Sequence record: SRR31156797_4149
Reading direction: 5' to 3' (one strand)
DNA length: 38,291 nt
Shown: piece by piece, positions 972 to 22,158 of the stretch
How positions within the stretch are numbered: the first letter of the stretch is position 1
Layout of the letters: every line of letters starts with the position of its first letter
Notes under the pieces: generated by a model
What the model was told of the DNA's origin: nothing
Seen by the model: only the letters and a program-made list of their open reading frames with translations
Database searches by the model: none
Program-made: the position numbers and the translations under genes

Positions 972-3533
972 CTAGATCCGCTCAGCTGCTATTTCCAAAT
1001 CCAGATTCCCTGAGGAATTGCTCCGCTTACGAGTTCTTACAAAAGTTTCCTTAACTCTCTGTGATTTCATCATGTATGGAATCCAAATAGCGGCACCAAT
1101 TATACTTCTGCCTAAATCATCATACTCAATTGAATCGGCTCCAAGTATTTCTGCGCCCAATATGGTATCAATAATTAATCCTGCTAATACAGCCACTCGA
1201 AAGTAAATGTATAGCTTTGGGAAAATCGTTCTTTTCTGATGCATTAATACAATTAAAAATATCGCAGCCAAGATTATTGCTATATTATAGATCAATTCAA
1301 AAAAATAGAACCCGCCAGATAAAAATGGCATATTATTATATAATTCTATAAACTCATCCCAAGTTGCCTGGTTAAAATATCCCGAATCGTAAATTAAATA
1401 TGCAATGGAAATAGGTGTCATGTAAAGTCCTAGAGCTACCAATCCAAGCCAACCACCTATAGTTTCTCTTACTTGGGGATATCTTATCTCAGGTTTAAGC
1501 TCCCAGAGGTACAATTTCTTGAATACAAAAAACAGGCAAATCAATAATAGTACTGTAATGAATAATGCAGGACCAAATAGTTTAAATTTAGTATCTACAT
1601 TCACCCCCCATTCTATTGCATATTCACACTTATCACTTACAAGGTCATAATCTTTAAAATACCTTTTTAAATTCTCAACTGGCACATGATCTTTTAAGGT
1701 TTTATACCGATAACTTACCGTAACCATATGCGCCAATTTATTTACCGAAACATTGTAATTAAATTTAAAAATGTCATTCACTATGCTATCTGTTTCTTCT
1801 ATAAATCCTAGCTCTTTATGTTTTGGCAAATGAAGATTTATTTTCAATTCTACATCTACTGGGTAATTTATTTTTAAAGGTGTGGTTCTTACCTGGTCGT
1901 TTGTAGAATTCATGAACTCATAAAAATTGTATGGATAAAAGCTCGAATACAATTCTATGGTGTCTTTCCCTCTATGTTCCCATAAATCTTCAATGTAATA
2001 CTTCTCTACAACCTTGAATACATTGTTCTCTTCATCATCATGAAAACAGAGAGCAGAACCTTTTTGCCAACTTAAATTCTCATAATACTGACTGCAAAAA
2101 TCCAAATAATCATCCTTATTTTCAGCCATTGAGGAACCAATATTCACACTTCTCTTTGAATTGGCCAACTCACCAGAAAAACTGCTTACAACTTCATATC
2201 TCACTTTTGAAACACTATCGGTTAACCAGAAATTCTCATTTATAACAACTTTTTTACAAGCATTTTCGGGAATGGTCTCAAGTGTATTGCTTTTCTGATC
2301 AATTACAAGTGCTTTTCCATACATAGGATTCTGAATCTCACTCAAACCTCCCTTTTCACCATTACTTGTTGGATCGACCCAATATTCCTTACCCTTCCAA
2401 ATAAATTTTACAATTACATGATTAAAAGCAAATGGTGATGCCGAGAATTGATCGACAAACCTCTTGTGCTTTGTACTCACCAATGCAGGCCAGGCAGAAA
2501 CTCCAATACGGTTAAGCATAAGACTCAACAAATAAGATTTGTCCTTACAATCCCCAAATCGCTGATGGAAAACTCTTTCCGGGTGGTGAGGCTTGTGAGA
2601 GTTAACGCCATTGCTCATTGCCAGATATCGAATCTCATCCTGCGTAAATCTGATTAAATCAATTATCTCTTCTTCTTTCGTACCAGATTTTTTATCTGCT
2701 AAAAACTCATCAATTCCCGAACAATCAATATTTATTGGATACAATTCGAGCATAAATGAACGAACCTCATTCCAATTGTTAAAAGAACTAACCTCTGAAC
2801 GCGGATAGGCATTGTACCAACTAGGTGTGTCGTCATCAGTAAAAATGGGCGCTACATTCTGTAAATCCCAAACCAAACGTTTTACTTGTTTTGTGCTACG
2901 TAATTTAGGATTAGTGCCTCCGAACAGATTCTTAATTTTCACCTTCTTATCTCTGGGCAGCAGCATCTCATAATACAAATGCTGAATTTCTACATTGTAA
3001 GCCTGTGATACCATAGAATAAGCATAGTCTTTAAAAATGGGGTTGGCTCCCTTAAATGTATATTCATATTCAAGGATATCACCCACACGAATATCTTCTA
3101 ATATTGTAACCGCTGAATAACTGCCATCATAGAGGTAACGATCCGCTTTTTTTTCATTACGCATCAACTCTACCTTACTCCTGTCTAACTTGTTTATAAT
3201 TTTTCCATTGCGATGAACAACGATTTTATTTATAACCAATTCCTGATAAGATGGATCGAAAGTAAATTCCAACTGAGAATTGCTTTGAACACCATCTTCG
3301 TTATTTAATCGTATGCAATACCTGTAATTGTATTCTTTTGTAATTTCATTATCCTGCCAGTCTAAAAGCAGATAACTAATAGAACCTTCATTTTCCAAAT
3401 TCTTTACATTACTATTGAATTTAACTTTTGATTTCCAAGATGGTGAAGGTCCTATTTTAAAAGTAGGTGTAGCTATAGATAAAAAGGCTTGACTCGTAAA
3501 AATCAGCACAAGTAGTAGGCGCAATAATTTCAT
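972..3533 (-). CDS. DUF3857 + transglutaminase-like domain protein with C-terminal DUF2569-like membrane domain
   Basis: Signal peptide; DUF3857 signature (DIRVGDILEYEYT); transglutaminase core FGDCKDK / FNHVI / WVDPT (Cys-His-Asp); C-terminal TM helices starting IGGWL and ending WIPYMMKSQRVKETF, typical of DUF2569. Confidence 0.85.
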   Translation of the reverse strand: MKLLRLLLVLIFTSQAFLSIATPTFKIGPSPSWKSKVKFNSNVKNLENEGSISYLLLDWQDNEITKEYNYRYCIRLNNEDGVQSNSQLEFTFDPSYQELVINKIVVHRNGKIINKLDRSKVELMRNEKKADRYLYDGSYSAVTILEDIRVGDILEYEYTFKGANPIFKDYAYSMVSQAYNVEIQHLYYEMLLPRDKKVKIKNLFGGTNPKLRSTKQVKRLVWDLQNVAPIFTDDDTPSWYNAYPRSEVSSFNNWNEVRSFMLELYPINIDCSGIDEFLADKKSGTKEEEIIDLIRFTQDEIRYLAMSNGVNSHKPHHPERVFHQRFGDCKDKSYLLSLMLNRIGVSAWPALVSTKHKRFVDQFSASPFAFNHVIVKFIWKGKEYWVDPTSNGEKGGLSEIQNPMYGKALVIDQKSNTLETIPENACKKVVINENFWLTDSVSKVRYEVVSSFSGELANSKRSVNIGSSMAENKDDYLDFCSQYYENLSWQKGSALCFHDDEENNVFKVVEKYYIEDLWEHRGKDTIELYSSFYPYNFYEFMNSTNDQVRTTPLKINYPVDVELKINLHLPKHKELGFIEETDSIVNDIFKFNYNVSVNKLAHMVTVSYRYKTLKDHVPVENLKRYFKDYDLVSDKCEYAIEWGVNVDTKFKLFGPALFITVLLLICLFFVFKKLYLWELKPEIRYPQVRETIGGWLGLVALGLYMTPISIAYLIYDSGYFNQATWDEFIELYNNMPFLSGGFYFFELIYNIAIILAAIFLIVLMHQKRTIFPKLYIYFRVAVLAGLIIDTILGAEILGADSIEYDDLGRSIIGAAIWIPYMMKSQRVKETFVRTRKRSNSSGNLDLEIAAERI

Positions 3534-7981: not shown

Positions 7982-8048
7982 TATTTTCTGATACCAAAAG
8001 GCATCAAATTCTTCAACTGGATAAGTATGGAGGTATCAAAGCACAATT

Positions 8049-8183
8049 GGTAAGAATGTGTCATTGGTCGATAGGCTGTAAATTGAAACACAATTACATT
8101 CAATAAACATAGTATAGATTTGAAAATGAGGCATTTTAGAATACTCAATACGACAAACACTCACCCTTAAAAAATCGTTACCC
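8049..8183 (+). mobile_element. Degenerate attC-like (gene-cassette recombination) site
   Basis: Begins GGTAAG (cf. GGTAAC) and ends CGTTACCC, with complementary ends ~134 bp apart and partial internal complementarity (TGTGTC.ATTG / CAAT.CGACA.ACA). It lies directly downstream of the CDF gene. Confidence 0.4.
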
Positions 8184-8193
8184 TAAATAAACT

Positions 8194-8219
8194 AAAGACC
8201 TCCCATCCGAGGTCTTTTT
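8194..8219 (+). terminator. Intrinsic terminator after the GNAT-CDF region
   Basis: AAAGACCTC-ccatcc-GAGGTCTTT followed by TT. Confidence 0.75.
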
Positions 8220-8405
8220 CATTTCCCATAATTTCACCGACATTTTCATCCACTTGGTCGATAAAGTCGTCCTGTTTGTATTTTTTTTTACTGTTCATCT
8301 CAACTTGACAGGCAAATTATTTTTATAGTAAACAAAAAGGACTTAAATTAAATACTGTTTTATGAGATATTTCTCTTTATGAGGGAATTGAATAAAATAA
8401 GGTAA

Positions 8406-8473
8406 CCCATCGGCTGGTCATCAACCGGGTTTTGAACTTTGGACAGTCACTCTTGGAAGATGAGGCCGATGGG
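8406..8473 (+). promoter_or_regulatory. Long GC-rich stem-loop in the 5' leader of the HU-like/DUF4469 gene
   Basis: CCCATCGGC (8406-8414) pairs with GCCGATGGG (8465-8473); TCATC with GATGA; CCGGG with CTTGG (G:U pairs); apical ACT-TTGGAC-AGT. It ends 31 nt before the ATG. Confidence 0.65.
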
Positions 8474-8504
8474 CCCTTCTAATATAAACTAAATTCGTTA
8501 CATT

Positions 8505-9203
8505 ATGAGTTTACGTTATGGATTAACATCAAATCATTTGACAGATGATCCTAATGATTACATGGGAGTTGTTACAGACAACAAAACCGTGAATGTTTCA
8601 AAAATCATGGAACGCATGATTGGTAAAGGTTCAACAGTTACAAAAGCTGAAGGGCTTTCGGTAATTGAAGAATTCGAGTACGCGGTTGTCGAAGAAGTTA
8701 AAAGTGGAAATACCGTCTCCACCGATTTGTTCCGAATTCACCCAAGTATTTCCGGAGTGTTTAACAATGAGAACGACAGTTTCGATCCTTCTCGTCACTC
8801 CATTCGTTTGAACATCAGTCCTGGACCTAGGTTGGCTGAAATCATTTCCAAAATCGAATTGGAAAAGGTGACTATTGTTTCGGCTCAACCTGAAATTCTT
8901 CTTTTTGTTGATTTAAAGACAAAAGAAGAGAATCAATCCTTCACGGCAGGGCAAATAGCTGCAATTAGAGGTTCTTTGTTGAAGTTTGATGAAGAAGATC
9001 CGCAACAGGGAGTATTTTTTATTGCTAGTGACGAAAGCGAAACAAAAGTTACTGAATTCGTAAAGAACAAGCCATCAGAGTTGCTTTTCTTTGTACCTGA
9101 TGCATTGACTGCTGGTACTTTTCAAATTGAATTAAGAACCATACTTCACAATTCAAAGGTTCTGAAAAAAACCAAATTAGCGAATATCCTTGTTGCCAAT
9201 TAA
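8505..9203 (+). CDS. HU-like DNA-binding domain + DUF4469 (Ig-like) protein
   Basis: N-terminal L..N.LT.DP.DY...GST.T.AE....E......G..V.T.LF...PSI.GVF.....FDP..H; C-terminal I.G..LK......GVFF...NKPSEL.F.VP..L..G...IE.RT, characteristic of this Bacteroidota family. Confidence 0.87.
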   Translation: MSLRYGLTSNHLTDDPNDYMGVVTDNKTVNVSKIMERMIGKGSTVTKAEGLSVIEEFEYAVVEEVKSGNTVSTDLFRIHPSISGVFNNENDSFDPSRHSIRLNISPGPRLAEIISKIELEKVTIVSAQPEILLFVDLKTKEENQSFTAGQIAAIRGSLLKFDEEDPQQGVFFIASDESETKVTEFVKNKPSELLFFVPDALTAGTFQIELRTILHNSKVLKKTKLANILVAN

Positions 9204-9229
9204 TTCGCTGTATGCACACATTTCAATAT

Positions 9230-9254
9230 GCCCGGTTTATTCCGGGCTTTTTTT
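9230..9254 (+). terminator. Intrinsic terminator of the DUF4469 gene
   Basis: GCCCGG-tttatt-CCGGGC-TTTTTTT. Confidence 0.9.
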
Positions 9255-9283
9255 ATGCAATACATAGGAATTTCTCAAGAAGC

Positions 9284-9398
9284 TTGAGCACTACCACCCC
9301 ACTTCTTTGAGCAGTACTATACAAACAAGTAGAGCAATACTACCCAAATATCTTGGACAGTACTACCCAAGGAACTTGGGCAATACTACCCGAAGCAA
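9284..9398. repeat. Tandem array of five 18-bp near-palindromes with 5-nt variable spacers (23-bp period)
   Basis: Units start at 9284 TTGAGCACTACCACCCCA, 9307 TTGAGCAGTACTATACAA, 9330 TAGAGCAATACTACCCAA, 9353 TTGGACAGTACTACCCAA and 9376 TTGGGCAATACTACCCGA. Spacers are CTTCT, ACAAG, ATATC, GGAAC, AGCAA. Confidence 0.9.
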
Positions 9399-9516
9399 TG
9401 GAAATTTTCCAGCTCCAATTGGCACTTTAAATGGCTCATTGACTATACCATAGGATTGCCTTGAGGTAATCTATATTTCAAATGAAATATCAACTTCCTT
9501 GTTAAAATATTCTGAT

Positions 9517-9951
9517 CTACCGTCGATCTACATAAAAAGTAAGAATCGCATGTGATGATATCCCATTCTCATCGAGAACTTGCGTGTGGAATTTGTAATT
9601 GCCCGGTATGGCATTCCCATTTACAACTAATTTTAAGGATACAATAACTTCCTCCTTATTGCAAAGGATAGTTTCATTTGTAAAAATCTCTTGTAAGGAA
9701 GAGGAAAAATACTTGCTGCAATTTAGCTCTGAAAGTCCACCCTTCTCTAAATGCATTTGATAAGTACTTATTTTTTGATTGCCTGTAAGTAATATTTTAA
9801 GGTTTAGGCTATCGTTTGGGTGAACGATGTTAAAAGGCATTGGACTTAGAAACTGTATGGTATTTTCGCTTGTTTGCCTCTGTTTTTTGGCTTTCCCAGC
9901 TAGTACTACAGTTGTAAAAAGTACCATTCCTACTAGTAGAATATACTTCAT
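9517..9951 (-). CDS. Secreted Ig-like protein, DUF4625-like
   Basis: Signal peptide; beta-rich, with PGNYKFHTQVLDENG resembling the DUF4625 G.Y.F...V.D..G motif. Confidence 0.5.
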   Translation of the reverse strand: MKYILLVGMVLFTTVVLAGKAKKQRQTSENTIQFLSPMPFNIVHPNDSLNLKILLTGNQKISTYQMHLEKGGLSELNCSKYFSSSLQEIFTNETILCNKEEVIVSLKLVVNGNAIPGNYKFHTQVLDENGISSHAILTFYVDRR

Positions 9952-9996
9952 GTTGGGTTATTTGGGTTTTAAGTTAGGTTGAGTATTAAAGGTAGT

Positions 9997-10060
9997 AAAA
10001 AAAAAAGAGCAGAGCACGAGCAATCGGGGTTGATTTTACTCGTAAAGCTCCACCCTTTTC
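9997..10060 (-). terminator. Long hairpin + U10 tract (terminator-like) on the minus strand
   Basis: Minus strand AGGGTGGAGC-TTT-ACGAGTAA...TTGCTCGT-GCTCTGCTCT followed by a T run; the G:U pairs work only on the minus strand. Confidence 0.7.
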
Positions 10061-10397
10061 ATTGTATAATTAATACCAAAATGAGACATGCTATTATCTT
10101 ATTTTAGTGTCTTTGCTCCCAATTCCATACTGAATTGGAGTCATATCTTAAACCCAAAAGAGTTCACTCTATAATGGGAATTCCTATTTTCATTATCAAT
10201 AGTAGTGCTTATTCCTTTACAAATTCATACCAATTGAAAAAACAAAATCTTCTTTTGAAATGAACCTCTATTTTCCAGACAAACAACACTATCCTATTGA
10301 TTTACTTTAAGTTCAAATTAACTCAACAATTTCAAATAAGGCAATAAGTATCTATATCAGGTGTATCTTACCTAAAAACAGATGTATTTTTTAATGT

Positions 10398-10444
10398 AAA
10401 AAGAGAAGATCAAGGGCAACCAGGAACAATAAGATTGCCCTTGA
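10398..10444 (-). terminator. Probable terminator of the N-glycan PUL
   Basis: TCAAGGGCAA (10410-10419) / TTGCCCTTGA (10435-10444) inverted repeat, followed on the minus strand by TCTTCTCTTTTT, ~50 nt after the last PUL gene. Confidence 0.55.
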
Positions 10445-10491
10445 ATTTCAGAGTATACTCATATAACGAGACAATGAGTTATATGTGTAAT

Positions 10492-11457
10492 TTAAAGGTT
10501 AATATTCTGACACAAATGACCGAAGTTCAACTTCTCATCTTTTATGTAGGAGTACACAGCCCAGACCTTATTACCATCGTTTTTGATGATTTCAACAGTA
10601 ACAGACTCTTTTAAGGTAATGCCTGCAAAGTAAAGATCAATGTCTAATACTCCATCAGATTTAACCCCAACCGACTTGTCGCCAGTGAAAAACAACTTAT
10701 AGTAATAGCCATAACTACTATTCAATCCAATCATGGTTGTTCCATCAGCAAACGAGCTTTCTTCACTTAAATAATACTCGTGCATATCATTGGTGTTGAA
10801 AATATAACGACTCTCTTCATTCGCCATAATCTCTTCCAATTCTTTAGCATCGTAAGGAATTGTAGTAGTGCTGATTGTTACCGGAATATCCAATGTCAAT
10901 CCATAAGAATCCGTTAATGTAATTGTTGCTTCTCCTTTTTTAGTCGCCACAAGTACAATTTCACTATCATTTTCAATTGTTGCCGAAACGATTTCACTTT
11001 CAGTGCTCACTTCATAATCTCCATTCCCTTTTGTAATCGGAATTCTCATGGTTTTAGGATGTCCCAAAGGCATTTTAACCATAATTTCTGTCGACTCCAC
11101 TTCAAGCACATCGTAAAAAGCCACTACATTTAACTCCTTGTATTGACTGTTTTTATCTGAGATAATTATCGAAGTTCGTCCTCTTGACAATGCACTTAAG
11201 GTAAGAACATTGTCTGCAAGTTCAACCGATACAACATCCGGATCTGAAGAAAAAGCATGATATTCTCCTCCTCCTTGTGTAATTTTTACATTCCCGGTAT
11301 TGTCCACTTTCACATCTACCGTAGATTTCTCAAGAATCAATTCGCTTACTTCCTCTGTTGGCAGAATATCATTATCATCGTCGTCGTCGTCGCAGGCAGT
11401 AAAGCCCAAAGGCAAAACCATCACCAGCAAATACAACAGTTTATTTCGTAATTTCAT
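10492..11457 (-). CDS. Surface lipoprotein with two Ig-like repeats (BT3988-like position in the PUL)
   Basis: Lipobox GFTAC followed by an acidic tract; two repeats IT.G.G.Y...S....V...........L.A...G...I.I/L.D. Confidence 0.7.
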   Translation of the reverse strand: MKLRNKLLYLLVMVLPLGFTACDDDDDDNDILPTEEVSELILEKSTVDVKVDNTGNVKITQGGGEYHAFSSDPDVVSVELADNVLTLSALSRGRTSIIISDKNSQYKELNVVAFYDVLEVESTEIMVKMPLGHPKTMRIPITKGNGDYEVSTESEIVSATIENDSEIVLVATKKGEATITLTDSYGLTLDIPVTISTTTIPYDAKELEEIMANEESRYIFNTNDMHEYYLSEESSFADGTTMIGLNSSYGYYYKLFFTGDKSVGVKSDGVLDIDLYFAGITLKESVTVEIIKNDGNKVWAVYSYIKDEKLNFGHLCQNINL

Positions 11458-11569
11458 CTGTTTCAGTTTTTTTATTAAATTTTAAAGCCTCTCCCGATAT
11501 TGTTCCCGGGAGAATACTTAAACAATTTCAACCTGGTAAAAAAGGAGATATCAAATCCCTTTTGTAATT

Positions 11570-12973
11570 CTACCAGTCTTTCTTAAATGGCTTTTCATCG
11601 TACACCAATTCATCATCGAACAGCTTGTCGGCAATGCTTTCCATTGCTTGTTTCTGACGATCGAAATTGTCTCGGAACGGATCCATAGCAAAAATCATAT
11701 GCGAGCCATAACCATCGTTACGCATGTTTTCCAAATTTGAATCATCAGTCCAATAACCACGATTGAATTCCTGAGAATACAAAGCCATTCCTGATTTTGG
11801 CATTCCCGGATAATTCGAGCTCAAATCTGAACTTCCACCGTAATCATGAATACCATAATCAACAAAAGTACCCGATTGCTGACCATCAATATCTGGCAAA
11901 GATGATGTAGATCCATAAGCATAAGCACAAACCAATCGATCTGGCATAGCTTGTTTTGCCTCGAAACAAAGACGAGAAGCTGCTGCCGATGATGGAGATA
12001 CAAATCCTACAGGAGCCGGGTTTTGATATGCTGAATACTCATCATCAACAAAGATTCCATCTAAGTGATAAGAGTCGCAAACCACTTTCAATTCCTGAGC
12101 AAAAACTCTTGCCGTTTCATCAGCTAAGTTCGATACTCCTGCACGGTCGTGATTTCCTAAGATACCCAGTACGATTTTCATTCCTCTGTCCTGCAAAGGC
12201 TTCAAATATTTCTCTCTGTTATCTAGAATGTGCTGAACATTAGGATTGTTGTATACATATACTTTGCCCGTTTCGTTGTTGTAATTGATGTTGGCAGAGA
12301 AAAGAATAACAATATCGATTAATGGCTTCCCACTCTCTTTCAGTGTAAAGCACAAGTTGTTCAATGGATTGGTATCATTCACCTCCATACAACTGATAAT
12401 CTTTATTCCACTAGCCTTGTCAACCGTAGGAATCGTGCTTAAATCTTTCACAAAAATCAGATAAACCGATTCTTTTTCAGACAATTTAATGCCACCTGAT
12501 TTAACTTCAACACGAACTGGAATTACATACGTTTTCTGAGCACTTAAAGCATCGGATGTTGCAAATTGAACCAATGCTTTTCCAGACTTATTGCTTCCCT
12601 TCTTCAATTGAAAGTCACTATTGAAACTTACCAATTCCTTAGGAAACAATTCATATTCTGTACTGTTTTCATCGTTGTAAGCATGAAGTACTTCCTCATC
12701 GAATTTCAAATTGGCTACCACATCGCTCTCCGCATTTTTTGAAGATGCCAAATACATTTCTGCCTGCCCCTGATTGCGAAACTCTACCATTGCGGTTCCA
12801 CGATTTCCTGAATTGTTTACAAGGTAAGCAATGGCATCGGAGCTTGTTGTGTATTGATTTTCATCAACACTTGTAACGTCAATGCTATCATCGCAGGCAG
12901 TAAAAAAGCCCATCATTGCAATGGCAGCAGTAAGTATCACATTTCTTTTGAATGATATATTATATTTCATCAT
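11570..12973 (-). CDS. DUF1735 + GH18 endo-beta-N-acetylglucosaminidase lipoprotein (BT3987/EndoH/EndoF1-like)
   Basis: Lipobox FFTAC; DUF1735 (YVIPVRV); EVNDTNPLN, LFSANINY, KPLQDRGMKIVLGILGNHD and catalytic LDGIFVDDEY (DxE intact). The start is moved from 13006 to the MMKYN codons at 12973, which removes the overlap and gives a normal signal peptide. Confidence 0.9.
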   Translation of the reverse strand: MMKYNISFKRNVILTAAIAMMGFFTACDDSIDVTSVDENQYTTSSDAIAYLVNNSGNRGTAMVEFRNQGQAEMYLASSKNAESDVVANLKFDEEVLHAYNDENSTEYELFPKELVSFNSDFQLKKGSNKSGKALVQFATSDALSAQKTYVIPVRVEVKSGGIKLSEKESVYLIFVKDLSTIPTVDKASGIKIISCMEVNDTNPLNNLCFTLKESGKPLIDIVILFSANINYNNETGKVYVYNNPNVQHILDNREKYLKPLQDRGMKIVLGILGNHDRAGVSNLADETARVFAQELKVVCDSYHLDGIFVDDEYSAYQNPAPVGFVSPSSAAASRLCFEAKQAMPDRLVCAYAYGSTSSLPDIDGQQSGTFVDYGIHDYGGSSDLSSNYPGMPKSGMALYSQEFNRGYWTDDSNLENMRNDGYGSHMIFAMDPFRDNFDRQKQAMESIADKLFDDELVYDEKPFKKDW

Positions 12974-12998
12974 TTTTCTGTTATTAATTACACTTCCA

Positions 12999-14141
12999 TT
13001 ACTCACCCGGTGCAGGCAAAGTAACCGGAGTCCATCGTAAAGTAGAATTTGCTACTGCATTATTTCCATTTCCAGTATGATCTTGAACTGAAAGAGCTGA
13101 TTCATCATCAAATTTCCAGTAGGCAACCAAACCTTCCGAAGCTGGATCTACATAATATGGATTGGCTGCAATATCTTCCTTGCTGCGAACCACATTCCAA
13201 ATTCTACACTCCGAAATTTCACCTGCCAGGTATCTTTCATCAGCCCATGAACGACCAATGCAGAATCCGCTTGTTCCACCTTGTCCAAGATTCACATCAC
13301 CTAAAGATTTGGTAGTTTCGGACTGCTTGCTCCCGTTCACGTAAACAATCATTTCTCCCGTAGCTGAATCGTAAGTTAAAGCAATGTGAACCCATTCGTT
13401 GGTTGGTAGACCTTTGTTAGAATCTCCATCAGGGAAATTACCATTACTTGTTGCTACCTGAATTTGATTGCTTGGGAATCCGGCATCTCCTAAACGAATT
13501 AAGAATTGTCCTTCGATCCCCATAACGGTACTAATCATTCTATCAAAATTGCTAACACGAATCAAAGCTTCCATGGTTAGCTGAGAAAGATTGTTACAAA
13601 CATCAGGATTGGTCCAGTTCACAGTCAAATAGTTCTCTTCGATATCAGCTACCACATTAATTAAGGCAGCACCTTTAATCACATAATACAATGTTCTGGC
13701 ACTTTCCAACACTTCGATATCTTGGCTATCCATGCTTACAGGCAAAACATATACAATCTCCCGATCCAATTGACTCAAATCCTTAAACAGAACTTTTATC
13801 TCTTTCGAAAGAACATTACCAGCAGTAATACTTACCGTATTTTCAGGTAATGAATAGTTTTCAGCAGGTAGCATTTCTGCATTGTCGTAATAAGCTAAAT
13901 TATAAGTAGCTACCAATGCCGGATCAATGTTGTAATTCACAATAATATCCTGCATGCTTGGTTTTGCAATAGCAGCCTGAATGCTTTTTTCAACATCATT
14001 TACTCCTGCTTTCACCAATAATTCGCTGGTTTTAGAAGAACTACTTACATATACTTTATTGTCGAAATCATCATCCGAGCCATCGCAGCCAAATGAAAAA
14101 ATCATTAAAAATAAAGCTGCATATAATATATAGTGTTTCAT
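12999..14141 (-). CDS. DUF1735 + LamG/ConA-like surface glycan-binding lipoprotein (BT3986-like)
   Basis: Lipobox SFGC; DUF1735 (YVLPVS); LamG signatures WVHIALTYD, YVNG, GEISECRIWN, GLVAYWKFD, D.TGNGN. Confidence 0.88.
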   Translation of the reverse strand: MKHYILYAALFLMIFSFGCDGSDDDFDNKVYVSSSSKTSELLVKAGVNDVEKSIQAAIAKPSMQDIIVNYNIDPALVATYNLAYYDNAEMLPAENYSLPENTVSITAGNVLSKEIKVLFKDLSQLDREIVYVLPVSMDSQDIEVLESARTLYYVIKGAALINVVADIEENYLTVNWTNPDVCNNLSQLTMEALIRVSNFDRMISTVMGIEGQFLIRLGDAGFPSNQIQVATSNGNFPDGDSNKGLPTNEWVHIALTYDSATGEMIVYVNGSKQSETTKSLGDVNLGQGGTSGFCIGRSWADERYLAGEISECRIWNVVRSKEDIAANPYYVDPASEGLVAYWKFDDESALSVQDHTGNGNNAVANSTLRWTPVTLPAPGE

Positions 14142-14147
14142 TTCAAT

Positions 14148-15212
14148 TTAGTTTTTAAGTGATGGATTAATGTTATCTATCGCCATTCTGGTGTAATGAT
14201 AAACACGCTCCGGACTAAAGAAATCATTACTCACATTATTAATCCCCATACCTGCAACTGTGAAACCTTCATGCTCCGAAGCCACCCAAACAGAGGTACC
14301 TTCAACAGAATAAGTTTCGCCGTCAGCCCAATATCCGGTCTTCATATCCGCCGGATCAAGAGAAATGGTTTCTGCGGTAACAATAAATCTGTCGGTTGGT
14401 ACTCCATCAACTGCTGCAGAATAAATGTTATAGCTTAATTTTGAACCGTTACCAGCAGCATCACATGGTATAATAATGTATTTGCAATCAGGTAAGAAAG
14501 TCTTATCTAAAAGGTTTTGAGGTTTTCCCTGGAACAATACCATTTTATCCTCATTTCTAGAGCTCCAGTCTTTCAAAATACCTATAAAAGCATTGTGATA
14601 ACTCATGTACTCTTTTTTCTCAAGATCAGTCATATGAAGAATGCTTTTTCCCTCATAAGAGAAACATACCCCATCGTAATTGTACTTGTTCACCAAAGCA
14701 AAAGAGTTGTGCAAACTGTCTACCATATAATTGATAAAAGTTGGCAGTGGAGATGTAATCTCTTCGCCTTCTTCTTTCGCCTTGTCCTCTGCATCTTTTA
14801 AAAGCGTATAGCTTAATTTAATGGCATCGAAACCAATGGTAAATACAAATTGGGTTCCTTTGTCCTCTCTTGTTTCTTCCATTTCTTCCATTTCTCTTTC
14901 CACCAAATTGTTAGGGTAGAGTATGGAAACAATATCAGTACTATCAGGAATTACATTGATATGCTGTGCACGATTAAAAGGCTGCTTTTCCTTATTGTCG
15001 AAACTCACATAAATGCATTTATGATCCGAGTTCTTATAAGCTTTTAAGCTTTCCAAATAATCTGCATAAAGTGCAGGGTTTTCATCTTCGATACCTGGCT
15101 GGTTAATATCCAATGTTTCATTTTCTGTCCAGTCTTCGCAAGAGCTAAACAGAAATGAAGCAATCAGACCCATTCCATATAGTGCAAATTTATATTTTGA
15201 TATATTCTTCAT
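14148..15212 (-). CDS. DUF4849 GH18-like lipoprotein, degenerate catalytic motif (BT3985-like)
   Basis: Lipobox FSSC-EDWTENE; Y..YLE.LKAYK.SDH; IPDS.DIVS; the motif reads YDGVCFSYE instead of DGxDxDxE. Confidence 0.82.
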   Translation of the reverse strand: MKNISKYKFALYGMGLIASFLFSSCEDWTENETLDINQPGIEDENPALYADYLESLKAYKNSDHKCIYVSFDNKEKQPFNRAQHINVIPDSTDIVSILYPNNLVEREMEEMEETREDKGTQFVFTIGFDAIKLSYTLLKDAEDKAKEEGEEITSPLPTFINYMVDSLHNSFALVNKYNYDGVCFSYEGKSILHMTDLEKKEYMSYHNAFIGILKDWSSRNEDKMVLFQGKPQNLLDKTFLPDCKYIIIPCDAAGNGSKLSYNIYSAAVDGVPTDRFIVTAETISLDPADMKTGYWADGETYSVEGTSVWVASEHEGFTVAGMGINNVSNDFFSPERVYHYTRMAIDNINPSLKN

Positions 15213-15218
15213 GTTCTG

Positions 15219-16796
15219 CTAGTTTTTATTCTTACAATCCCACCATACTTTAGTAGCCATATTATCAGGTCCACCTAACTTGTCGATAGCACCTTGCAAA
15301 TTGGTCGCATTTTCCTTGTACTCTCTTAAAGGATAAGGTAAACGACGAGCCATTTCAGCACCATCAACAACACCATTACTCTGGTTGTATGGCACTTCCA
15401 TTAAACGAGGATATCCGGTACGACGAAATTCAGACCATGCTTCATGACCCAATGGGAAATTGGCAATCCATTTCTGTGTAATGATGCGCTCCAAACCAAG
15501 TTCGAAATCATCCGCATCGTTCCATTTAATAGTTATGGAAGCAGGAACGCCAGTGTTATCATTCGCTCCAAGAGGATCCTTATAGTTTTCAGGAATACTG
15601 GCAGTATTCTGAGCATAAGCATCAGCACCAGAAACACCCCATTGGTTAAAAGACAATTCGATACCCTGATTGTAGAAATCATTGGCAGAACCACCCATAT
15701 TCCAACCGCGTAATGCACCTTCAGCTTTTAAGAAAGCACTTTCCGCAGCATTCATCCAAAGCAACTTATTGTTTGATTCAGCAATGTTCATGTTGCTGTA
15801 CTTGTGAGCTGTTGCCGATGATGCAATGTTAATTCCTGATCGTAAACCATAGTATCCATTATCAAATGCAGGATTATCAGTATCCTCGAAAGCACTCATG
15901 GTAAAATACTTTTCTCTACGTGGATCTGCATATCCATTCATATAAGAAGTAATGTCGGCAGAAACACGTGAATCACCTCCATTGTACTCATACATTACCA
16001 CTCTAAATGGTGATTTAGCAACCGTATTGTATGCATTGTCATCGTTGGTAGACATGCATCCCACCTCATGATTTACTGCCTCTTCAGCTTTAGTTTGAGC
16101 TAAAGTTGGATTGGCATAAACAATTCTCATGGCCAATCGCAATTTTAAAGAGTTGGCAAACTTAATCCAATTCAACACTTTACCATCGAAAACCTTATCA
16201 GCATAAGGGCTAAAATCAGACGTTTGATTTGGTGTTAACACCTCAATCGCATGATCCAATTCTTCCAACATTTTACTGTATACATCTTCCTGCAAATCGT
16301 AAGGAGCTTCCAATTTTCCATCTACTCCAATTTGAGAGTAAGGAATGTGACCATAAATATCTGTAACGCGATGTATGGCTGCTACTTTAATAATTTCTGC
16401 TACCGCCAAAGGAATTGGATCGGTGGTAACAGCCTTTAGTTGTACTTGATTGGCATAGATTTTTGGAATAATATCATTAAATGGCACCTGAATCCAGTGT
16501 TGCTCAGGATTATAGGTAGCATAGTTCTTTCCAACAAATCCGGAATTTGAATCTGCTAAGTATCCTCCAAAAGAACCTCCAAGCAAGCATTCGGTAAACT
16601 GATTTAAATTTACATCCGCAGGTATTACATAACCCTGCATCGCCACCATTGCTGCCCTTAAACTATATGCATCATATTGCATTTGGTCATCATTGGCATC
16701 GTATGGATTAGTATTGTAATCCTCATAATTCGAAGTACAGGAAGTACCCAATAAAATCGAAGCAGAGAACAACAAATTTATAATTGATTTTTTCAT
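15219..16796 (-). CDS. susD: SusD family outer-membrane glycan-binding lipoprotein (BT3984-like)
   Basis: Lipobox GTSC; RVTDIYG.IPYSQ, W.KFANSLKLRLAMR, IITQKWIA.FP.G.EAWSEFRRTGYP, T.VWWD. Confidence 0.93.
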   Translation of the reverse strand: MKKSIINLLFSASILLGTSCTSNYEDYNTNPYDANDDQMQYDAYSLRAAMVAMQGYVIPADVNLNQFTECLLGGSFGGYLADSNSGFVGKNYATYNPEQHWIQVPFNDIIPKIYANQVQLKAVTTDPIPLAVAEIIKVAAIHRVTDIYGHIPYSQIGVDGKLEAPYDLQEDVYSKMLEELDHAIEVLTPNQTSDFSPYADKVFDGKVLNWIKFANSLKLRLAMRIVYANPTLAQTKAEEAVNHEVGCMSTNDDNAYNTVAKSPFRVVMYEYNGGDSRVSADITSYMNGYADPRREKYFTMSAFEDTDNPAFDNGYYGLRSGINIASSATAHKYSNMNIAESNNKLLWMNAAESAFLKAEGALRGWNMGGSANDFYNQGIELSFNQWGVSGADAYAQNTASIPENYKDPLGANDNTGVPASITIKWNDADDFELGLERIITQKWIANFPLGHEAWSEFRRTGYPRLMEVPYNQSNGVVDGAEMARRLPYPLREYKENATNLQGAIDKLGGPDNMATKVWWDCKNKN

Positions 16797-16916
16797 CCGT
16801 TTATAATTTATTTTTATTTATCAGATGGAACTCTCGATGAATTTTTAACATACTTCTGTGAGTAAGTTAGTATGTTAAAATTCATGTTCGTTTCATAATT
16901 ATCATGATTAAATTGC

Positions 16917-19900
16917 TTAGAATTTAACTCTCACATTAAAACCATAACTACGTTGACTCGGCATCATAAAATAATCTATTCCCTGGTAATAGTTACCTGT
17001 AGAAGCAACTGATTCAGGATCGAATGGAGCTTTATTGTAGAACATAAACAAGTTTCTTCCAACCAATGTAAATGTCACATCAGCAAAATTATAGAACTTA
17101 TCTTTTGTAAGAGTGTAACCGATACTTGCCTCTTGCAAACGTACATTTGTTGCGCTATAAGTATAAAATTGAGGAATACCCGATTTTGCACCGATTGTAG
17201 TATACCATTTTTGGGCATCAACCATATCGCCTCCATTTACAACTACACCACCATTATCGCGAGCATTAGCTGAAGCTTCAGAAACACCATAACGATCTAA
17301 TGTAGCCTGAGTTGCAGAATATACAATACCACCTATACGAGCAGATACCATAAACCCAAGGTTGAAACCTTTGTATCTAAAATCATTTCTCCATGCCATA
17401 TTCGCATCAGGAAATACCGATCCCAGCTTTATGTCTTCCACATTGTACTCTGCAGCTACATTTCCATTCTGATCTACGAAAATTTTCCCGTCGCTATCAC
17501 GCTTCAAATCAGCGATAGAATACAAATCTCCAAGACCTCCACCTTTTTTCAAAATGAATCTGGCATTTGATAAACCACCAATATCCAAACGATCTTTAGT
17601 GATCACTGCTTTTGTCTCAGGATGTACATAATTGTCAACCAATTCTGAAATCTCATTCTCATTAGAACTCAATGTGAAATTAGAACTCCAGCTAAAGTCA
17701 TTCCAAGTATTTTTATATCCCAAAGCAAGCTCAATACCTCTATTTTTAACACTACCAGTTTGAACATACAAAGTAGAATAACCAGAAGAAACTGAGATTT
17801 GAGGATCGAAAGTTTGATTGAATGTTTTTGTGCTGTACAAACTCACATCCAAATCGAAATGTTTCATCAATTTAGCCGTTAAACCAATTTCCCATGATTG
17901 GGTTCTTTCCGGTTTTAAATCGTAAAGAGGATAATGTGTTTTGGTTTCCCATACTTTATTGGCATTGTCCCAAGCGTAGGTTGGATTTGCCAAAAAACGC
18001 GCAAATGGAAGACCTACAGATGCATAGGAAGCTCTAAGCTTTGCATATTGAATTTGCATTGGCAATTCGAATATCTCAGATAAAACAAATGAGGTACCAA
18101 TAGATGGATACATGAAAGAACTCTCATTTGAATGAGGTCCTGCCAATTGAGAAGCCCAATCGTTACGACCGGTAAGAGTTAGGTAATAAGCTCCCTTGTA
18201 GCCCAATTCAGCACTTGCAAAAACCGATTTGGTTTGATCATGCCAACCCGACTGCTCACGTTTGGTAGTCACATCGTCTAACTGATATACATTAAACAAA
18301 TTTGGAATACCATCGGCACGAATGGGTCCGCGATTCGACAATACATCCTCTTTCATATCTGAATAGGAAACCCCAATATTTGCTTGAAGCGAAAAATCTT
18401 CAGTAAAGTTCTTGTTGATATTCACAAGAAAATCGGCATAAGTTTGCTTGGCTTCATTTCTGGCAATTCCATACAAACCATTATTCGATCCTTCGGTAAG
18501 AGTTCTGTTAGATGTTGCGTATAATTTCTCAGTAAAATCATTAATCGAATTATCAATACGAACACGACCTCCAAAATTCAACCAACTTGCAGCATCGTAG
18601 CTAAAACCAGCATTTAACATGTAACGATTCTTCTTGTTCTCGCGTAAGTTTCTGTGAGCAATCCAATATGGATTTTGTCCAGCAAACTCATCAATACCTT
18701 GTGGCCAATATTGAGTATAAATCTTACGAGAAGAATCATATCGCTCATACATTTTTATATCATCCCAATCATCACCACGAGGGAAAAGATATGCTGTCAC
18801 CAATGGGTTGGCATAAACCCCTTGATTTACCATATTCATATCTTCTTGTTTGATATATGAACCACCAAAATCAATTTTTAGTTTGTCATTCAAACAACTG
18901 GTTGTATTTCTGAATGTAAAATTCTGACGATCGTAACTATTGTTTGGAACAATACCTTCCGAATTGATCGTACTTGCAGATAAATAGGTTTGGTTTTTGT
19001 CTGTTCCAGTAGAAAATGACATCGAATTTGTGAACACCATTCCTGTCTCGAAAAAATCATCCTTGGGTGAATAACCCATTCGGTTCGCATTATTCAATTT
19101 ATGTCCCCAACTTTTATCTAAAACCTGAACATCCGAACTTAAATCTCCCGTTCCATAAGAATTCTGGAAATCAGGCAATGCAAAGGTTTGCATCATTTCA
19201 ACATTACTAGTTAAAGTTAAAGAGGTCGAACCTGCTTTTCCTTTTTTTGTGGTAATTACAATAGCACCATTGGATGCATGACTACCATAAAGAGCTGCTG
19301 CTGCTGCCCCCGTTAAAACCGATACACTTTCAATGTCCTCAGGATTGATATCTGCAATTGCTTCTGTAGAACCATTGGATCCAAACTCAGTCTCACCAGC
19401 ACCACCAAAATTAAACATTGGCACACCATCGATTACATACAATGCATTACTCGATTGAGCAATGGTTTTTGTACCACGCATGATAACTTTACTTGCTCCC
19501 CCTACTCCGGAAGAACTGCTGTTGATGTTTACACCAGCAACTTTACCTGAAAGTGTATTTACAAAGTTGGCATCCTTATTTGAAACAATATCCTCACTGG
19601 ATACTTGCTGAACATTATAACTCAATGCTTTTGTGGCACGCTTGATTCCCAATGCTGTAACAACAACCTCGTTCAATCCAACAACAGAAGGAAGTAATAC
19701 AACATCAAAATACTGAGATTTTGTAATTGCAAATTCCTGATCTTCATATCCAATAAAAGTAATGGCCAATATTTCTGAAGTGTTTCCTGTCAATTCGAAC
19801 TCTCCATCAATATTTGTAATTGTCCCATTAGTGGTTCCTTTGATACTTACCGATGCTCCAATTATGGTTTCACCGGATTCATCCAAAACCTTACCCTTAA

Positions 19901-20276
19901 GTTTTACTTTTTTCTTTGCTGTAGCCTGATTCTTTTCAGTATCTTTTTTAGCTACAGTGATAATATTATCTTTTACGATACATTCAAAGCCTTGTCCTTC
20001 AAATATTTTATTTAAAACATCTGTAAGTTCAACTTCTTTTGCTTTGTAATTCACACGCTTATTCATATCTATATCACTGGTATTCATAGAAAAAGAATAA
20101 TTGTGCTTTGTTTGTAGAACTTCAACAGCTTCTTTTATTGTTAAGTTCTTGAAATTAACCGATATCTTCTGTGAAAATATGGGTGTAATCCCTCCAAACA
20201 GCGCTATAATCAACATTATTATTGATTTTTTCAATCTTAACTGCGCCAGATTGAGGTTTCCTGAAATTAAATTCAT
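16917..20276 (-). CDS. susC: SusC-like TonB-dependent transducer with N-terminal signalling (STN) extension
   Basis: STN-like N-terminus, CarboxypepD_reg-like domain, LNEVVVTALGIKR, plug DINPEDIESVSVL.G.AAAALYG, C-terminal Phe. Confidence 0.95.
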   Translation of the reverse strand: MNLISGNLNLAQLRLKKSIIMLIIALFGGITPIFSQKISVNFKNLTIKEAVEVLQTKHNYSFSMNTSDIDMNKRVNYKAKEVELTDVLNKIFEGQGFECIVKDNIITVAKKDTEKNQATAKKKVKLKGKVLDESGETIIGASVSIKGTTNGTITNIDGEFELTGNTSEILAITFIGYEDQEFAITKSQYFDVVLLPSVVGLNEVVVTALGIKRATKALSYNVQQVSSEDIVSNKDANFVNTLSGKVAGVNINSSSSGVGGASKVIMRGTKTIAQSSNALYVIDGVPMFNFGGAGETEFGSNGSTEAIADINPEDIESVSVLTGAAAAALYGSHASNGAIVITTKKGKAGSTSLTLTSNVEMMQTFALPDFQNSYGTGDLSSDVQVLDKSWGHKLNNANRMGYSPKDDFFETGMVFTNSMSFSTGTDKNQTYLSASTINSEGIVPNNSYDRQNFTFRNTTSCLNDKLKIDFGGSYIKQEDMNMVNQGVYANPLVTAYLFPRGDDWDDIKMYERYDSSRKIYTQYWPQGIDEFAGQNPYWIAHRNLRENKKNRYMLNAGFSYDAASWLNFGGRVRIDNSINDFTEKLYATSNRTLTEGSNNGLYGIARNEAKQTYADFLVNINKNFTEDFSLQANIGVSYSDMKEDVLSNRGPIRADGIPNLFNVYQLDDVTTKREQSGWHDQTKSVFASAELGYKGAYYLTLTGRNDWASQLAGPHSNESSFMYPSIGTSFVLSEIFELPMQIQYAKLRASYASVGLPFARFLANPTYAWDNANKVWETKTHYPLYDLKPERTQSWEIGLTAKLMKHFDLDVSLYSTKTFNQTFDPQISVSSGYSTLYVQTGSVKNRGIELALGYKNTWNDFSWSSNFTLSSNENEISELVDNYVHPETKAVITKDRLDIGGLSNARFILKKGGGLGDLYSIADLKRDSDGKIFVDQNGNVAAEYNVEDIKLGSVFPDANMAWRNDFRYKGFNLGFMVSARIGGIVYSATQATLDRYGVSEASANARDNGGVVVNGGDMVDAQKWYTTIGAKSGIPQFYTYSATNVRLQEASIGYTLTKDKFYNFADVTFTLVGRNLFMFYNKAPFDPESVASTGNYYQGIDYFMMPSQRSYGFNVRVKF

Positions 20277-20326
20277 ATTCTTGTAATGTTTTTTAGTTTG
20301 TTAATTAGAATTTAACTGAAAAATTT

Positions 20327-20366
20327 AGGTGGAGAATGTACGAGATTCTCTGCCTTTTTCTTTTTT
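20327..20366 (+). terminator. Antisense-oriented intrinsic terminator in the fecR-susC intergenic region (candidate cis-antisense sRNA 3' end)
   Basis: AGGTGGAGAAT-gtacgag-ATTCTCTGCCT-TTTTCTTTTTT. Two G:U pairs and the U tract both fit the + strand, opposite to the PUL. Confidence 0.7.
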
Positions 20367-20421
20367 GGTTAGCGTTTCTTCATTGGCAATTTTCAAGATT
20401 TGGGGTTATACTTCATGTTTT

Positions 20422-21411
20422 TCATTTTATGTATATCATATTGGCTTTTCTTTCTATTATCATCTTTTCATTCGCATTTAAAGCTGATAATATTTCATCC
20501 AAACTTTCATTGTTAACAAACATCGAGTAAAAGCGTTCCTTTTTAAGAGATTCATTCTCGATATTAATTCTTACATCAAAATATCTTTCGAGAGCCACTG
20601 CAATTTCACTTAAGGATTCATCCATAAAGTAAAAGCCTTTGCTGTTGTACCATAGCTTACGTGTTGCAACAATAAAATCGCTTTTTTGCAATTCTCCTGT
20701 ACTTTTCGAATACCTCACAATCTCGCCAGGCTTCAATAATTTTGTCTTGCTTTCTCCTTTGTAAAAAGCATTCATCCGAACCGAACCTTCCATCAAGGAT
20801 ACCGCTATATGGGAATCCTCACTATAGGATTTCACATTGAATTTTGTACCTAAAACTTCAACTGTCACCTCTCCCGCTGACAAAACAAATGGGCGAGATT
20901 TATCTTTTGTTACTTCAGCATATGCCTCACCTGCCACATATACCTGTCGAAGAGAATTGTTAAATTTCCTTGGGTAAATTAACTTGGTACCTGCATTCAA
21001 CCACAACTTAGAACTATCCGGCAAACAAACCATTTTACTTTGTCCGTATGGCACATACTCTTCTACCCATTCTTTAGGATTGGTGGTCTCTGTATAAAAA
21101 TAAAGACTCGACAATAGAATAGGAATCAACAAAACTGCCGCGGCAATTCGATACCATTCCCCAAATCTTCGCAAAACTGAAGGTTTTTCACCTTTATCAT
21201 ACTCCTGCAAATGGACGGCTTTCTCAAATTTTTCAAATGCTCTATTGACAAGGCGATCATCCTTATCAACATTAATCTCATTCAAGATCTCCATAAGCAA
21301 AGCCTCATCCCGACTTTCATCTTGAATGGTAGCAAGCCATTGCTCAACTTCAAGTGCTTGCTGAGGGGTGCATCGGTTATAATAATAATTTTGTAATTGA
21401 TCTTTCGTCAT
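20422..21411 (-). CDS. FecR family anti-sigma factor
   Basis: One TM segment (WYRIAAAVLLIP); LPDSSKLWLNAGTKL.YP, GEAY.EV.KD..RPF, VEVLGTKFNV.SY; DUF4974-like C-terminus. Confidence 0.93.
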   Translation of the reverse strand: MTKDQLQNYYYNRCTPQQALEVEQWLATIQDESRDEALLMEILNEINVDKDDRLVNRAFEKFEKAVHLQEYDKGEKPSVLRRFGEWYRIAAAVLLIPILLSSLYFYTETTNPKEWVEEYVPYGQSKMVCLPDSSKLWLNAGTKLIYPRKFNNSLRQVYVAGEAYAEVTKDKSRPFVLSAGEVTVEVLGTKFNVKSYSEDSHIAVSLMEGSVRMNAFYKGESKTKLLKPGEIVRYSKSTGELQKSDFIVATRKLWYNSKGFYFMDESLSEIAVALERYFDVRINIENESLKKERFYSMFVNNESLDEILSALNANEKMIIERKANMIYIK

Positions 21412-21450
21412 ATGGTTCTAAAAAATGCATCTTTTAATCGGTCGACATTA

Positions 21451-21480
21451 ATAGAACGAATCAGGAAGGGGTACTACGCA
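21451..21480 (-). promoter_or_regulatory. Candidate ECF-sigma-dependent promoter for the fecR-susC operon
   Basis: Minus strand GTAGTACCCCTTCCTGATTCGTTCTAT, 40-70 nt upstream of fecR and after an A tract. It has an ECF-like -10 core CGT and the usual position in sigma/anti-sigma PULs. Confidence 0.35.
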
Positions 21481-21576
21481 ATGGAAAAGAGTTTTTTTTT
21501 ACTTTTTTTAAACATTTAGTAATAGCCGACAAAAAGACCACTTGTAAAACGCTAAATATAAACACATAGAAAGAAA

Positions 21577-22158
21577 TTAAGAGCAAATTAAAATTCCTTC
21601 AAAATTTATAAATAAGAAGAGATAATACAGAGGAAGGTTTTTTCTGATGTCTTGCAATGCTAAAAACAGATGACGTTCAATGGTTCGAACTGATAATTGT
21701 AACTGTTCAGCAATTTCCTTATTAGAAAGCATTTTTTCGCGACTCAGCTGGTAAACTTTTCTACGTTGCTCTGGCATTTTTGAAACAATACCAGCCACAC
21801 ATTGAGTCATCGTTTGTACATCCATTGATTCTTCAAAATCTTCAACAAAAACTCTATGATTTTCCTGAACTTCCTGATGCGATTCATTTGATTTTAACCT
21901 AAAATGATCACGAACTTCATTCTTTGCCAAAACATATAAATAATTGTGAATGGATTGATTGGGGTTAAGTTTTTCACGATTGACCCAAACTTTCATAAAT
22001 ATATTTTGTGTAATGTCTTCGGCTAACCAAGCATTCTTAAGCATTCCTTTTATAAAAGAATGAAATAAAGTATACTTTTCATCGAATAATTTTCGAAAGG
22101 AGTTCATGTCTCCTTTTATCAACCCTTCAACCAAATCACGATCATAAAAATCATTCAT
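21577..22158 (-). CDS. ECF RNA polymerase sigma-70 factor (Bacteroides expansion family 1)
   Basis: GD..SFRKLF, AEDITQNIFMKVW.NR, MPEQRRKVYQLSR...LSNKEIAEQL.LS.RTIE.H. Confidence 0.94.
   Translation of the reverse strand: MNDFYDRDLVEGLIKGDMNSFRKLFDEKYTLFHSFIKGMLKNAWLAEDITQNIFMKVWVNREKLNPNQSIHNYLYVLAKNEVRDHFRLKSNESHQEVQENHRVFVEDFEESMDVQTMTQCVAGIVSKMPEQRRKVYQLSREKMLSNKEIAEQLQLSVRTIERHLFLALQDIRKNLPLYYLFLFINFEGILICS

Follow-up and report, generated by a model that had tools for sequence, protein, structure and literature searches.

We consider it likely that a phased array of short dyad sites directly behind the gene for a two-domain HU-Ig protein is the cognate double-stranded DNA target of that protein, read through Ig loops carried on an HU homodimer and linked to its gene as a 3′ cassette. 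The array lies in a 38,291-nt stretch of DNA (record SRR31156797_4149), hereafter the window. The earlier note on this DNA had proposed phased sites for a dimeric protein, with the adjacent HU-like/DUF4469 protein as the obvious reader, and this proposal gains support from the linkage of such arrays to 115 of 131 related genes and from covariation between array sequence and one loop of the protein.

The array in the window

The gene (positions 8505–9203, plus strand) encodes a 232-residue protein in which an HU-DNA_bdg domain (PF14848) precedes DUF4469 (PF14734), and it is followed on the same strand by an intrinsic terminator-like hairpin with a T-tail (9230–9254, stem 9230–9247). Beyond this lies the array (9274–9403, assigned to neither strand), in which six dyad sites of the form CYCAA-N5-TTGRG start at 9274, 9297, 9320, 9343, 9366 and 9389, with an exact 23-bp period and 8-bp cores between sites. 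The same DNA had been read in the earlier note as five indel-free 18-mers at 9284, 9307, 9330, 9353 and 9376. These are all present, at 4, 3, 3, 1 and 2 mismatches, respectively, from the consensus proposed for them and with the five spacers as quoted, and no other site within four mismatches of that consensus occurs in the window. The gap of about 30 nt between the terminator (stem and T-tail) and the first unit is likewise as described, as is the non-coding nature of the array, which no open reading frame of at least 60 aa overlaps. A half site had been placed before the first unit; it is indeed there, but it does not stand alone, since it belongs to a full CTCAA-N5-TTGAG site. The six-site array encloses all five 18-mers (9284–9398) and appears to read better as six CYCAA-N5-TTGRG sites than as five 18-mers, which are individually imperfect dyads (8–14 of 18 positions self-complementary), a good palindrome being found only in their consensus. 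The identity at lag 23 (62 of 92 positions) is the highest among all periods in the window, the maximum in 40 block shuffles being 51, and TRF also reports a period of 23 with 0% indels.

A tandem dyad has two possible symmetry centres, here the 5-nt gap and the core. The dimer had previously been centred on the AGT/ACT core, but the constancy of the gap length, the ends of the arrays and paired deviations in the arms make the 5-nt gap the more probable centre. Where 22- and 23-bp steps occur within one array, the gap remains 5 and the core is 7 or 8 (a gap of 5 is seen in 6/6 cases in L001, L002, L144 and L094, for example), the exceptions being four edge calls of gap 4 or 6 in L163, L189 and L191. 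A left arm opens 30 of 42 arrays and a right arm closes 25 of 42. A separate, automatic analysis of end phase was too noisy to favour either frame. Deviations in paired arms gave odds ratios of 3.7 across the gap and 1.9 across the core (the latter not significant), and are confounded by array ends. Because the gap centre is favoured, we count the window array as six sites.

Compared with a 95%-identical relative, the array differs at 7 of 60 arm positions, 6 of 40 core positions and 13 of 30 N5 positions, with 22 differences at 88 four-fold codon sites; arms and cores taken together (13/100) differ significantly from N5 (13/30; Fisher p=0.001). When unit numbers were compared between strains, identical units were found in register in 4/4 close loci, and variants specific to particular positions in the array were retained whilst N5 drifted. 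Given that the arms and cores differ less than N5 and that the same units are kept in register, the pattern is one of selection on the sites and not of slippage, in keeping with the previous argument that constant spacing speaks against simple slippage.

Possible roles at the RNA level

It is conceivable that the array acts as RNA, forming repeated hairpins bound by the protein in the manner of REP or type III antitoxin repeats, and two features could be taken in this sense: the fold of the array in the window has z=−2.0 (matched by 6 of 200 shuffles) and a terminator-like hairpin is called within it on the minus strand. The array lies beyond the terminator, however, its minimum free energy structure accounts for 1.7% of the ensemble, and 15 of 99 consensus units from the wider family do not surpass shuffled sequences in palindromic character. 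The numbers of G-U and A-C mismatches are also even (30 versus 28 across N5, 27 versus 23 across cores), and it is because of this lack of G-U bias that we disfavour an RNA role, which we regard as very improbable. Rfam gave no match to the array at the gathering score, and an E-value scan of positions 8000–10500 returned nine matches, every one far under it. Assembled RNA contigs from three RNA runs cover the gene and its leader and leave the array uncovered, although contigs cannot prove absence; in a fourth run, whose library type is not on record, there is likewise a contig hole at 9256–9364.

The leader itself contains a conserved long hairpin (8406–8474, plus strand) that is part of the module in one clade, its motif occurring in 21 of 60 close loci. 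Four of nine outer-stem pairs show double-sided changes among 15 sequences, and a near-invariant GGTCATCAACC strand lies opposite a purine-rich strand. This hairpin has no Rfam match and is possibly an undescribed cis-regulatory RNA. A different hairpin occupies the same position in L001–L003.

The HU-Ig protein

Matches to HU-DNA_bdg (E 1e-31) and then DUF4469 (E 9e-24), both over cut-off, together with homology to the solved structure 4FMR (phmmer 3.5e-12; Foldseek 7e-18), place the protein in the Ig-fused subclade of the HU-HIG family; its nearest named relatives are from Marinifilum, which makes an origin of the window in Marinifilaceae probable. Genes of this subclade are present in 3–10 copies per genome, diverge rapidly and have no conserved gene neighbours. 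Each domain is predicted confidently (pLDDT 91). The HU-like domain (residues 3–121; 8511–8867, plus strand) provides the entire predicted homodimer interface, which is confined to residues 1–121, and the Ig-like domain (residues 126–232; 8880–9200, plus strand), of IPT/TIG-type fold, lies outside it. The predicted dimer score is 0.78, compared with 0.00 for the best of three controls, and may reflect memory of the solved homologue 4FMR; 21 of 30 solved pairs attain the mark used for this score, and none of 23 single chains does. At least 95% of the contacts agree between runs, and the partner pLDDT is at least 85.

In the eukaryotic factors NF-κB, NFAT and EBF the IPT domain mainly dimerises. 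Residues 126–232 resemble these domains in fold (Z 8–9, rmsd 2.3–2.7 Å over 82–91 residues), but in the HU-Ig protein it is the HU part that is predicted to dimerise. With IPT domains from sugar-binding and receptor proteins the match is at least as good (Z up to 12), and the fold is therefore uninformative on function. The last β-hairpin loop of the Ig domain (residues 212–220; 9138–9164, plus strand, with the His215 codon at 9147–9149) is the most variable nine-residue window of the protein and is our candidate specificity loop. Weighing against the array as cognate target, the protein is net acidic, with 25 K/R and 33 D/E. In 4FMR the Ig domain fills the space in which HU holds DNA (PMC5499826); this position fits Ig domains placed for DNA contact, although that paper concluded the opposite on specificity.

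Arrays across the gene family

The earlier note had suggested that co-location of such arrays with HU-like/DUF4469 genes be examined. An array with a period of 22–24 bp was found less than 500 nt downstream of 115 of the 131 HU-DNA_bdg+DUF4469 genes with enough downstream DNA, compared with 1 of 129 HU-Ig genes when looking upstream and none of 142 other genes of the same loci. Marinifilaceae and Marinilabiliaceae contributed most of the full set of 134 distinct full-length genes, which includes near-duplicates, so that its members are not independent. Amongst the 115 significant arrays the period was 22, 23 and 24 in 18, 91 and 6 cases, respectively; of the other 16 genes, two had arrays of other periods and 14 gave no call. 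Family arrays start at a median of 69 nt past the stop codon and have a median length of 110 nt. Arrays were also present at 18 of 23 additional Bacteroidales loci and in four of five records from Treponema, Fulvitalea and Parabacteroides, all of them downstream, and a wider family search returned no further close loci. It is the period and position that are conserved across the family and not the array sequence: the expectation of one shared TTGRGYAGTACTRCYCAA motif was not borne out, each lineage having a sequence of its own. Dyad symmetry is more frequent than expected by chance: the consensus unit has at least seven of nine pairs in 55 of 99 arrays, whereas 138 of 1980 shuffles reach this level.

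Period-24 arrays (L024, L028, L126, L129, L130, L137) and period-22 arrays (L030, L069, L105, L120, L121) cluster in particular protein subfamilies. In the Parabacteroides loci L244 and L245 the array directly separates the HU-Ig gene from a large co-oriented gene, with no obvious terminator by eye, and because of this arrangement it could control the downstream gene in these cases.

Covariation of the array with an Ig-domain loop

Within the close clade, array sequence tracks the candidate specificity loop, residues 212–220. With overall identity corrected for, a column scan of 35 non-redundant proteins of this clade peaked at residue 215 (r=0.55), with r=0.45 at residue 217, and the best five-residue window reached 0.43 against a maximum of 0.28 in 300 permutations. 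Residues 223–232, which are encoded closer to the array, gave no signal (−0.20 to +0.09) and HU-domain windows gave at most 0.20; the specificity signal maps to the Ig loop and not to the HU arms. Neither the mid group (n=15) nor the distant group (n=57), in both of which loop insertions were dropped, gave a significant peak, and pooling all 107 proteins gave 0.17 at residue 214 versus 0.13. Amongst the 105 pairs that share 80% identity or more when the loop is disregarded, the loop differs in all 40 with an array similarity of 0.60 or less, and array similarity is at least 0.62 in all 35 with identical loops (both numbers obtained by counting from the list).

Array types are scattered over the protein tree. 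A candidate code would pair His or Tyr at residue 215 with TG arms, Gln with ATAG arms and Lys, in most cases, with G at arm position 2. CAA-N5-TTG is present in 18 of 20 His215 genes and none of 26 others, the changes numbering 9 and 7 on a tree from which the loop was left out; the His215 rule, first spotted by eye, and the motif pattern were both chosen after inspection of the data. An independent-pairs test of this association had only four pairs on supported branches and was underpowered (p=0.5). TTG arms also occur in two His215 lineages beyond that comparison (L149/L150 and L171), the His215 proteins L167 and L177 are without the motif, and TTG-type arrays persist in two genomes (G003 and G211) in which no His215 gene was found. 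A loose pattern for Gln215 matches four of five Gln215 genes and seven of 41 others. L059 and L082 differ over their last 150 coding bases by one loop codon and five other base changes, and their arrays are unlike, whilst L131 and L132 are near-identical up to the loop and divergent from there through the array. In M. fragile, the chromosomal position equivalent to that of the window carries a Gln215 gene and a TATAG array. Taken as sequence comparisons, these co-changes point to what may be a family of matched protein–DNA pairs with a recognition code. Against the array being a cognate target, it must be considered that loop and array are physically linked and that in L131/L132 they changed as a single block.

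This linkage is central to an alternative in which the array is a hitchhiking minisatellite, arising and homogenising behind the terminator and following the 3′ end of the gene by linkage alone, without being read by the protein. A recombination break just before the loop would carry loop and array together, as in L131/L132, some arrays are near-perfect tandem copies of 7 to about 17 units, and an array can outlive the loss of its gene (G211, described below). A 23-nt minisatellite is also known from Porphyromonas gingivalis (PMC4596501). Hitchhiking does not sit well, however, with the lack of covariation at residues 223–232, or with the pairing of His215 with TTG arms on several branches that have different tails. 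The window units, moreover, hold their position-specific variants between strains whilst N5 drifts, and a period of 22–24 is retained across unrelated unit sequences. We judge this explanation improbable.

We hold it equally improbable that the array is recognised by shape, as bent or cruciform DNA held in the HU clasp, or serves as a recombination substrate, with sequence being secondary. HU binds bent and cruciform DNA and its fold is present here, the conserved features of the arrays are period and dyad symmetry, and CAA-N5-TTG is a motif that we take to resemble an IHF site. However, within the close clade none of the windows in the HU domain shows covariation with the array, a shape reader would not be predicted to have private sequences tied to one Ig loop, and no recombinase is annotated in the window.

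Arrays away from the gene and genomic setting

Each of four motifs, TTG included, has 0–3 further arrays per positive genome, compared with 0–1 for reversed-pattern controls. A credible gene remnant was found at one of 26 such sites, and 22 of the 24 with both neighbours called adjoin at least one gene 3′ end. Several lie at a conserved position across species with differing numbers of units. At L209 (about 3210–3370, genome G211) the gene and its promoter have been deleted, leaving half of the terminator and the whole TATAG array; we had considered this empty site as a pre-insertion site and rejected it on these grounds, and the deletion gives one route by which orphan arrays arise. Two orphan arrays of one genome, L200 and L207, have about 100 nt of flank in common, which suggests a duplicated or mobile array-carrying unit. 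At L255, L256 and L257, from three genomes, an orphan array near the middle of the locus, with the motif of another paralogue, ends shortly before the likely promoter, of Bacteroidota consensus type, of an ABC-type ATPase gene, and this gene is a candidate regulatory target.

Beyond the home array, the next gene runs convergently in 71 of 100 cases. An array serving as an autoregulatory operator was rejected, upstream arrays being limited to the 1 of 129 noted above. The own motif gives the best upstream match in 8 of 115 genes, where 7.2 are expected, and because the motif is not enriched upstream a simple operator seems unlikely. The window is one of those eight, by way of a 9-nt match in a leader element that also precedes genes with other arrays. 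Matches to the protein were found in 7 of 72,556 plasmid records and 1 of 50,697 phage records, and viral contigs gave no relative by protein or by alignment. In the window the repeats neighbour a cation-efflux gene and a SusC/D locus. The latter (10492–22158, minus strand, converging on the array) is a polysaccharide-utilisation locus of SusC/SusD type that includes a GH18 gene, FecR and an ECF sigma factor.

Proposed mode of action

If the array is the target, then the HU-like domain would form the predicted homodimer and the IPT/TIG-like Ig domain of each subunit would read one half-site through the loop at 212–220, chiefly by residues 215 and 217, as the covariation suggests; direct DNA binding by this loop is what we infer. 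One dimer would occupy each arm-N5-arm site, placing about six dimers, probably loaded cooperatively, every 22–24 bp across some 130 bp just past the terminator. As the loop codons lie some 60 nt upstream of the stop codon, loop, terminator and array form one short 3′ cassette that could be exchanged by recombination, with each paralogue keeping a private site sequence; a swap of this kind is seen once, in L131/L132.

As to what such binding would be for, we can offer a guess, held at rather less than even confidence even if binding is granted, that the array forms a protein block at gene ends which stops read-through or insulates neighbouring transcription units. Promoter control or looping ranks below this as a distinctly weaker candidate, a decoy or conflict role comes slightly lower again, and other roles make up the rest.

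A broader claim, to which we would give an even chance, is that HU-Ig proteins make up a large bacterial family of sequence-specific DNA readers in which an IPT/TIG loop is presented on an HU dimer scaffold, with a code of nearly one residue and with loop, terminator and array exchanged as a cassette of about 250 bp. Were this so, a genome could hold up to about ten protein–DNA pairs that do not cross-react, and the scaffold would be a naturally reprogrammable one, adding to bacteria an Ig-fold mode of reading DNA and a compact set of orthogonal protein–DNA pairs. The expansion of HU-HIG genes in Bacteroidota has so far been without a known target; for the present locus a specific candidate target and a specific loop can be named, together with natural pairs whose members are one or two loop residues apart and have different arrays (L059/L082 and L131/L132).

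Comparison with known systems

In ParR/parC, omega/parS and Rep/iteron systems a small dimeric DNA binder is encoded beside a phased array of its own sites, the sequence of which is lineage-specific. The HU-Ig gene likewise lies beside a phased array of lineage-specific sequence, made up of what are candidate sites of its own. Unlike those systems, it has no partition NTPase or Rep gene nearby, is mostly chromosomal and has many paralogues per genome; its array lies behind a terminator, and its fold is HU plus IPT and not RHH or wHTH. The centromere-like and iteron roles raised in the earlier note are accordingly not favoured: no partition NTPase was found among the 27 window proteins scanned, and no Rep initiator gene adjoins the repeats, whose neighbours are the cation-efflux gene and the SusC/D locus.

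Intergenic arrays of palindromes close to the 3′ ends of genes are also formed by REP/BIME elements, which are associated with the RAYT transposase and have a 'home' gene bordered by its own repeat. The HU-Ig home gene differs in encoding no nuclease or transposase, in having only 0–3 extra arrays per motif per genome and in showing no RNA-hairpin bias. This class was rejected, with 1–4 arrays per motif per positive genome and no G-U bias, as was a CRISPR or TIGR guide array, the free part being 5 nt, with no Rfam match and with no effector among the 27 proteins.

The BrickBuilt MITE of Porphyromonas gingivalis has a 23-nt period and several intergenic copies per genome, one of which adjoins a PF00216 gene (PMC4596501). 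It has a single consensus, a leader and a tail with terminal inverted repeats, and a strain-variable repeat number. The HU-Ig arrays are alike in their 23-nt period, intergenic position, occurrence in Bacteroidota and several copies per genome; they are unlike BrickBuilt in that their sequence is paralogue-specific and that the window array has the same units in register at 4/4 close loci. Orphan-array flanks, inspected by eye only for a MITE of this type, include the two that share about 100 nt.

The protein itself shares its architecture (PF14848 plus PF14734), its fold (4FMR) and its lineage-specific expansion with the Ig-fused subclade of HU-HIG described by Burroughs et al. 2017 (PMC5499826). 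HU-HIG proteins were predicted there not to be sequence-specific, and the accessible text mentions no linked DNA array; a Treponema member has been treated as a non-specific HU (PMC12724145). What differs from the family as published is that nearly every gene here has a private array tracking an Ig-domain loop, and the covariation, if read as we suggest, runs against the published prediction of non-specificity (PMC5499826). No open-access literature was found for DUF4469 by name, and no description of the arrays or of the specificity loop was found in the open-access literature, supplements excluded. The protein family is a known one and, although the partners that define ParR/parC or iteron arrays are absent, the logic of its arrays appears to resemble theirs.
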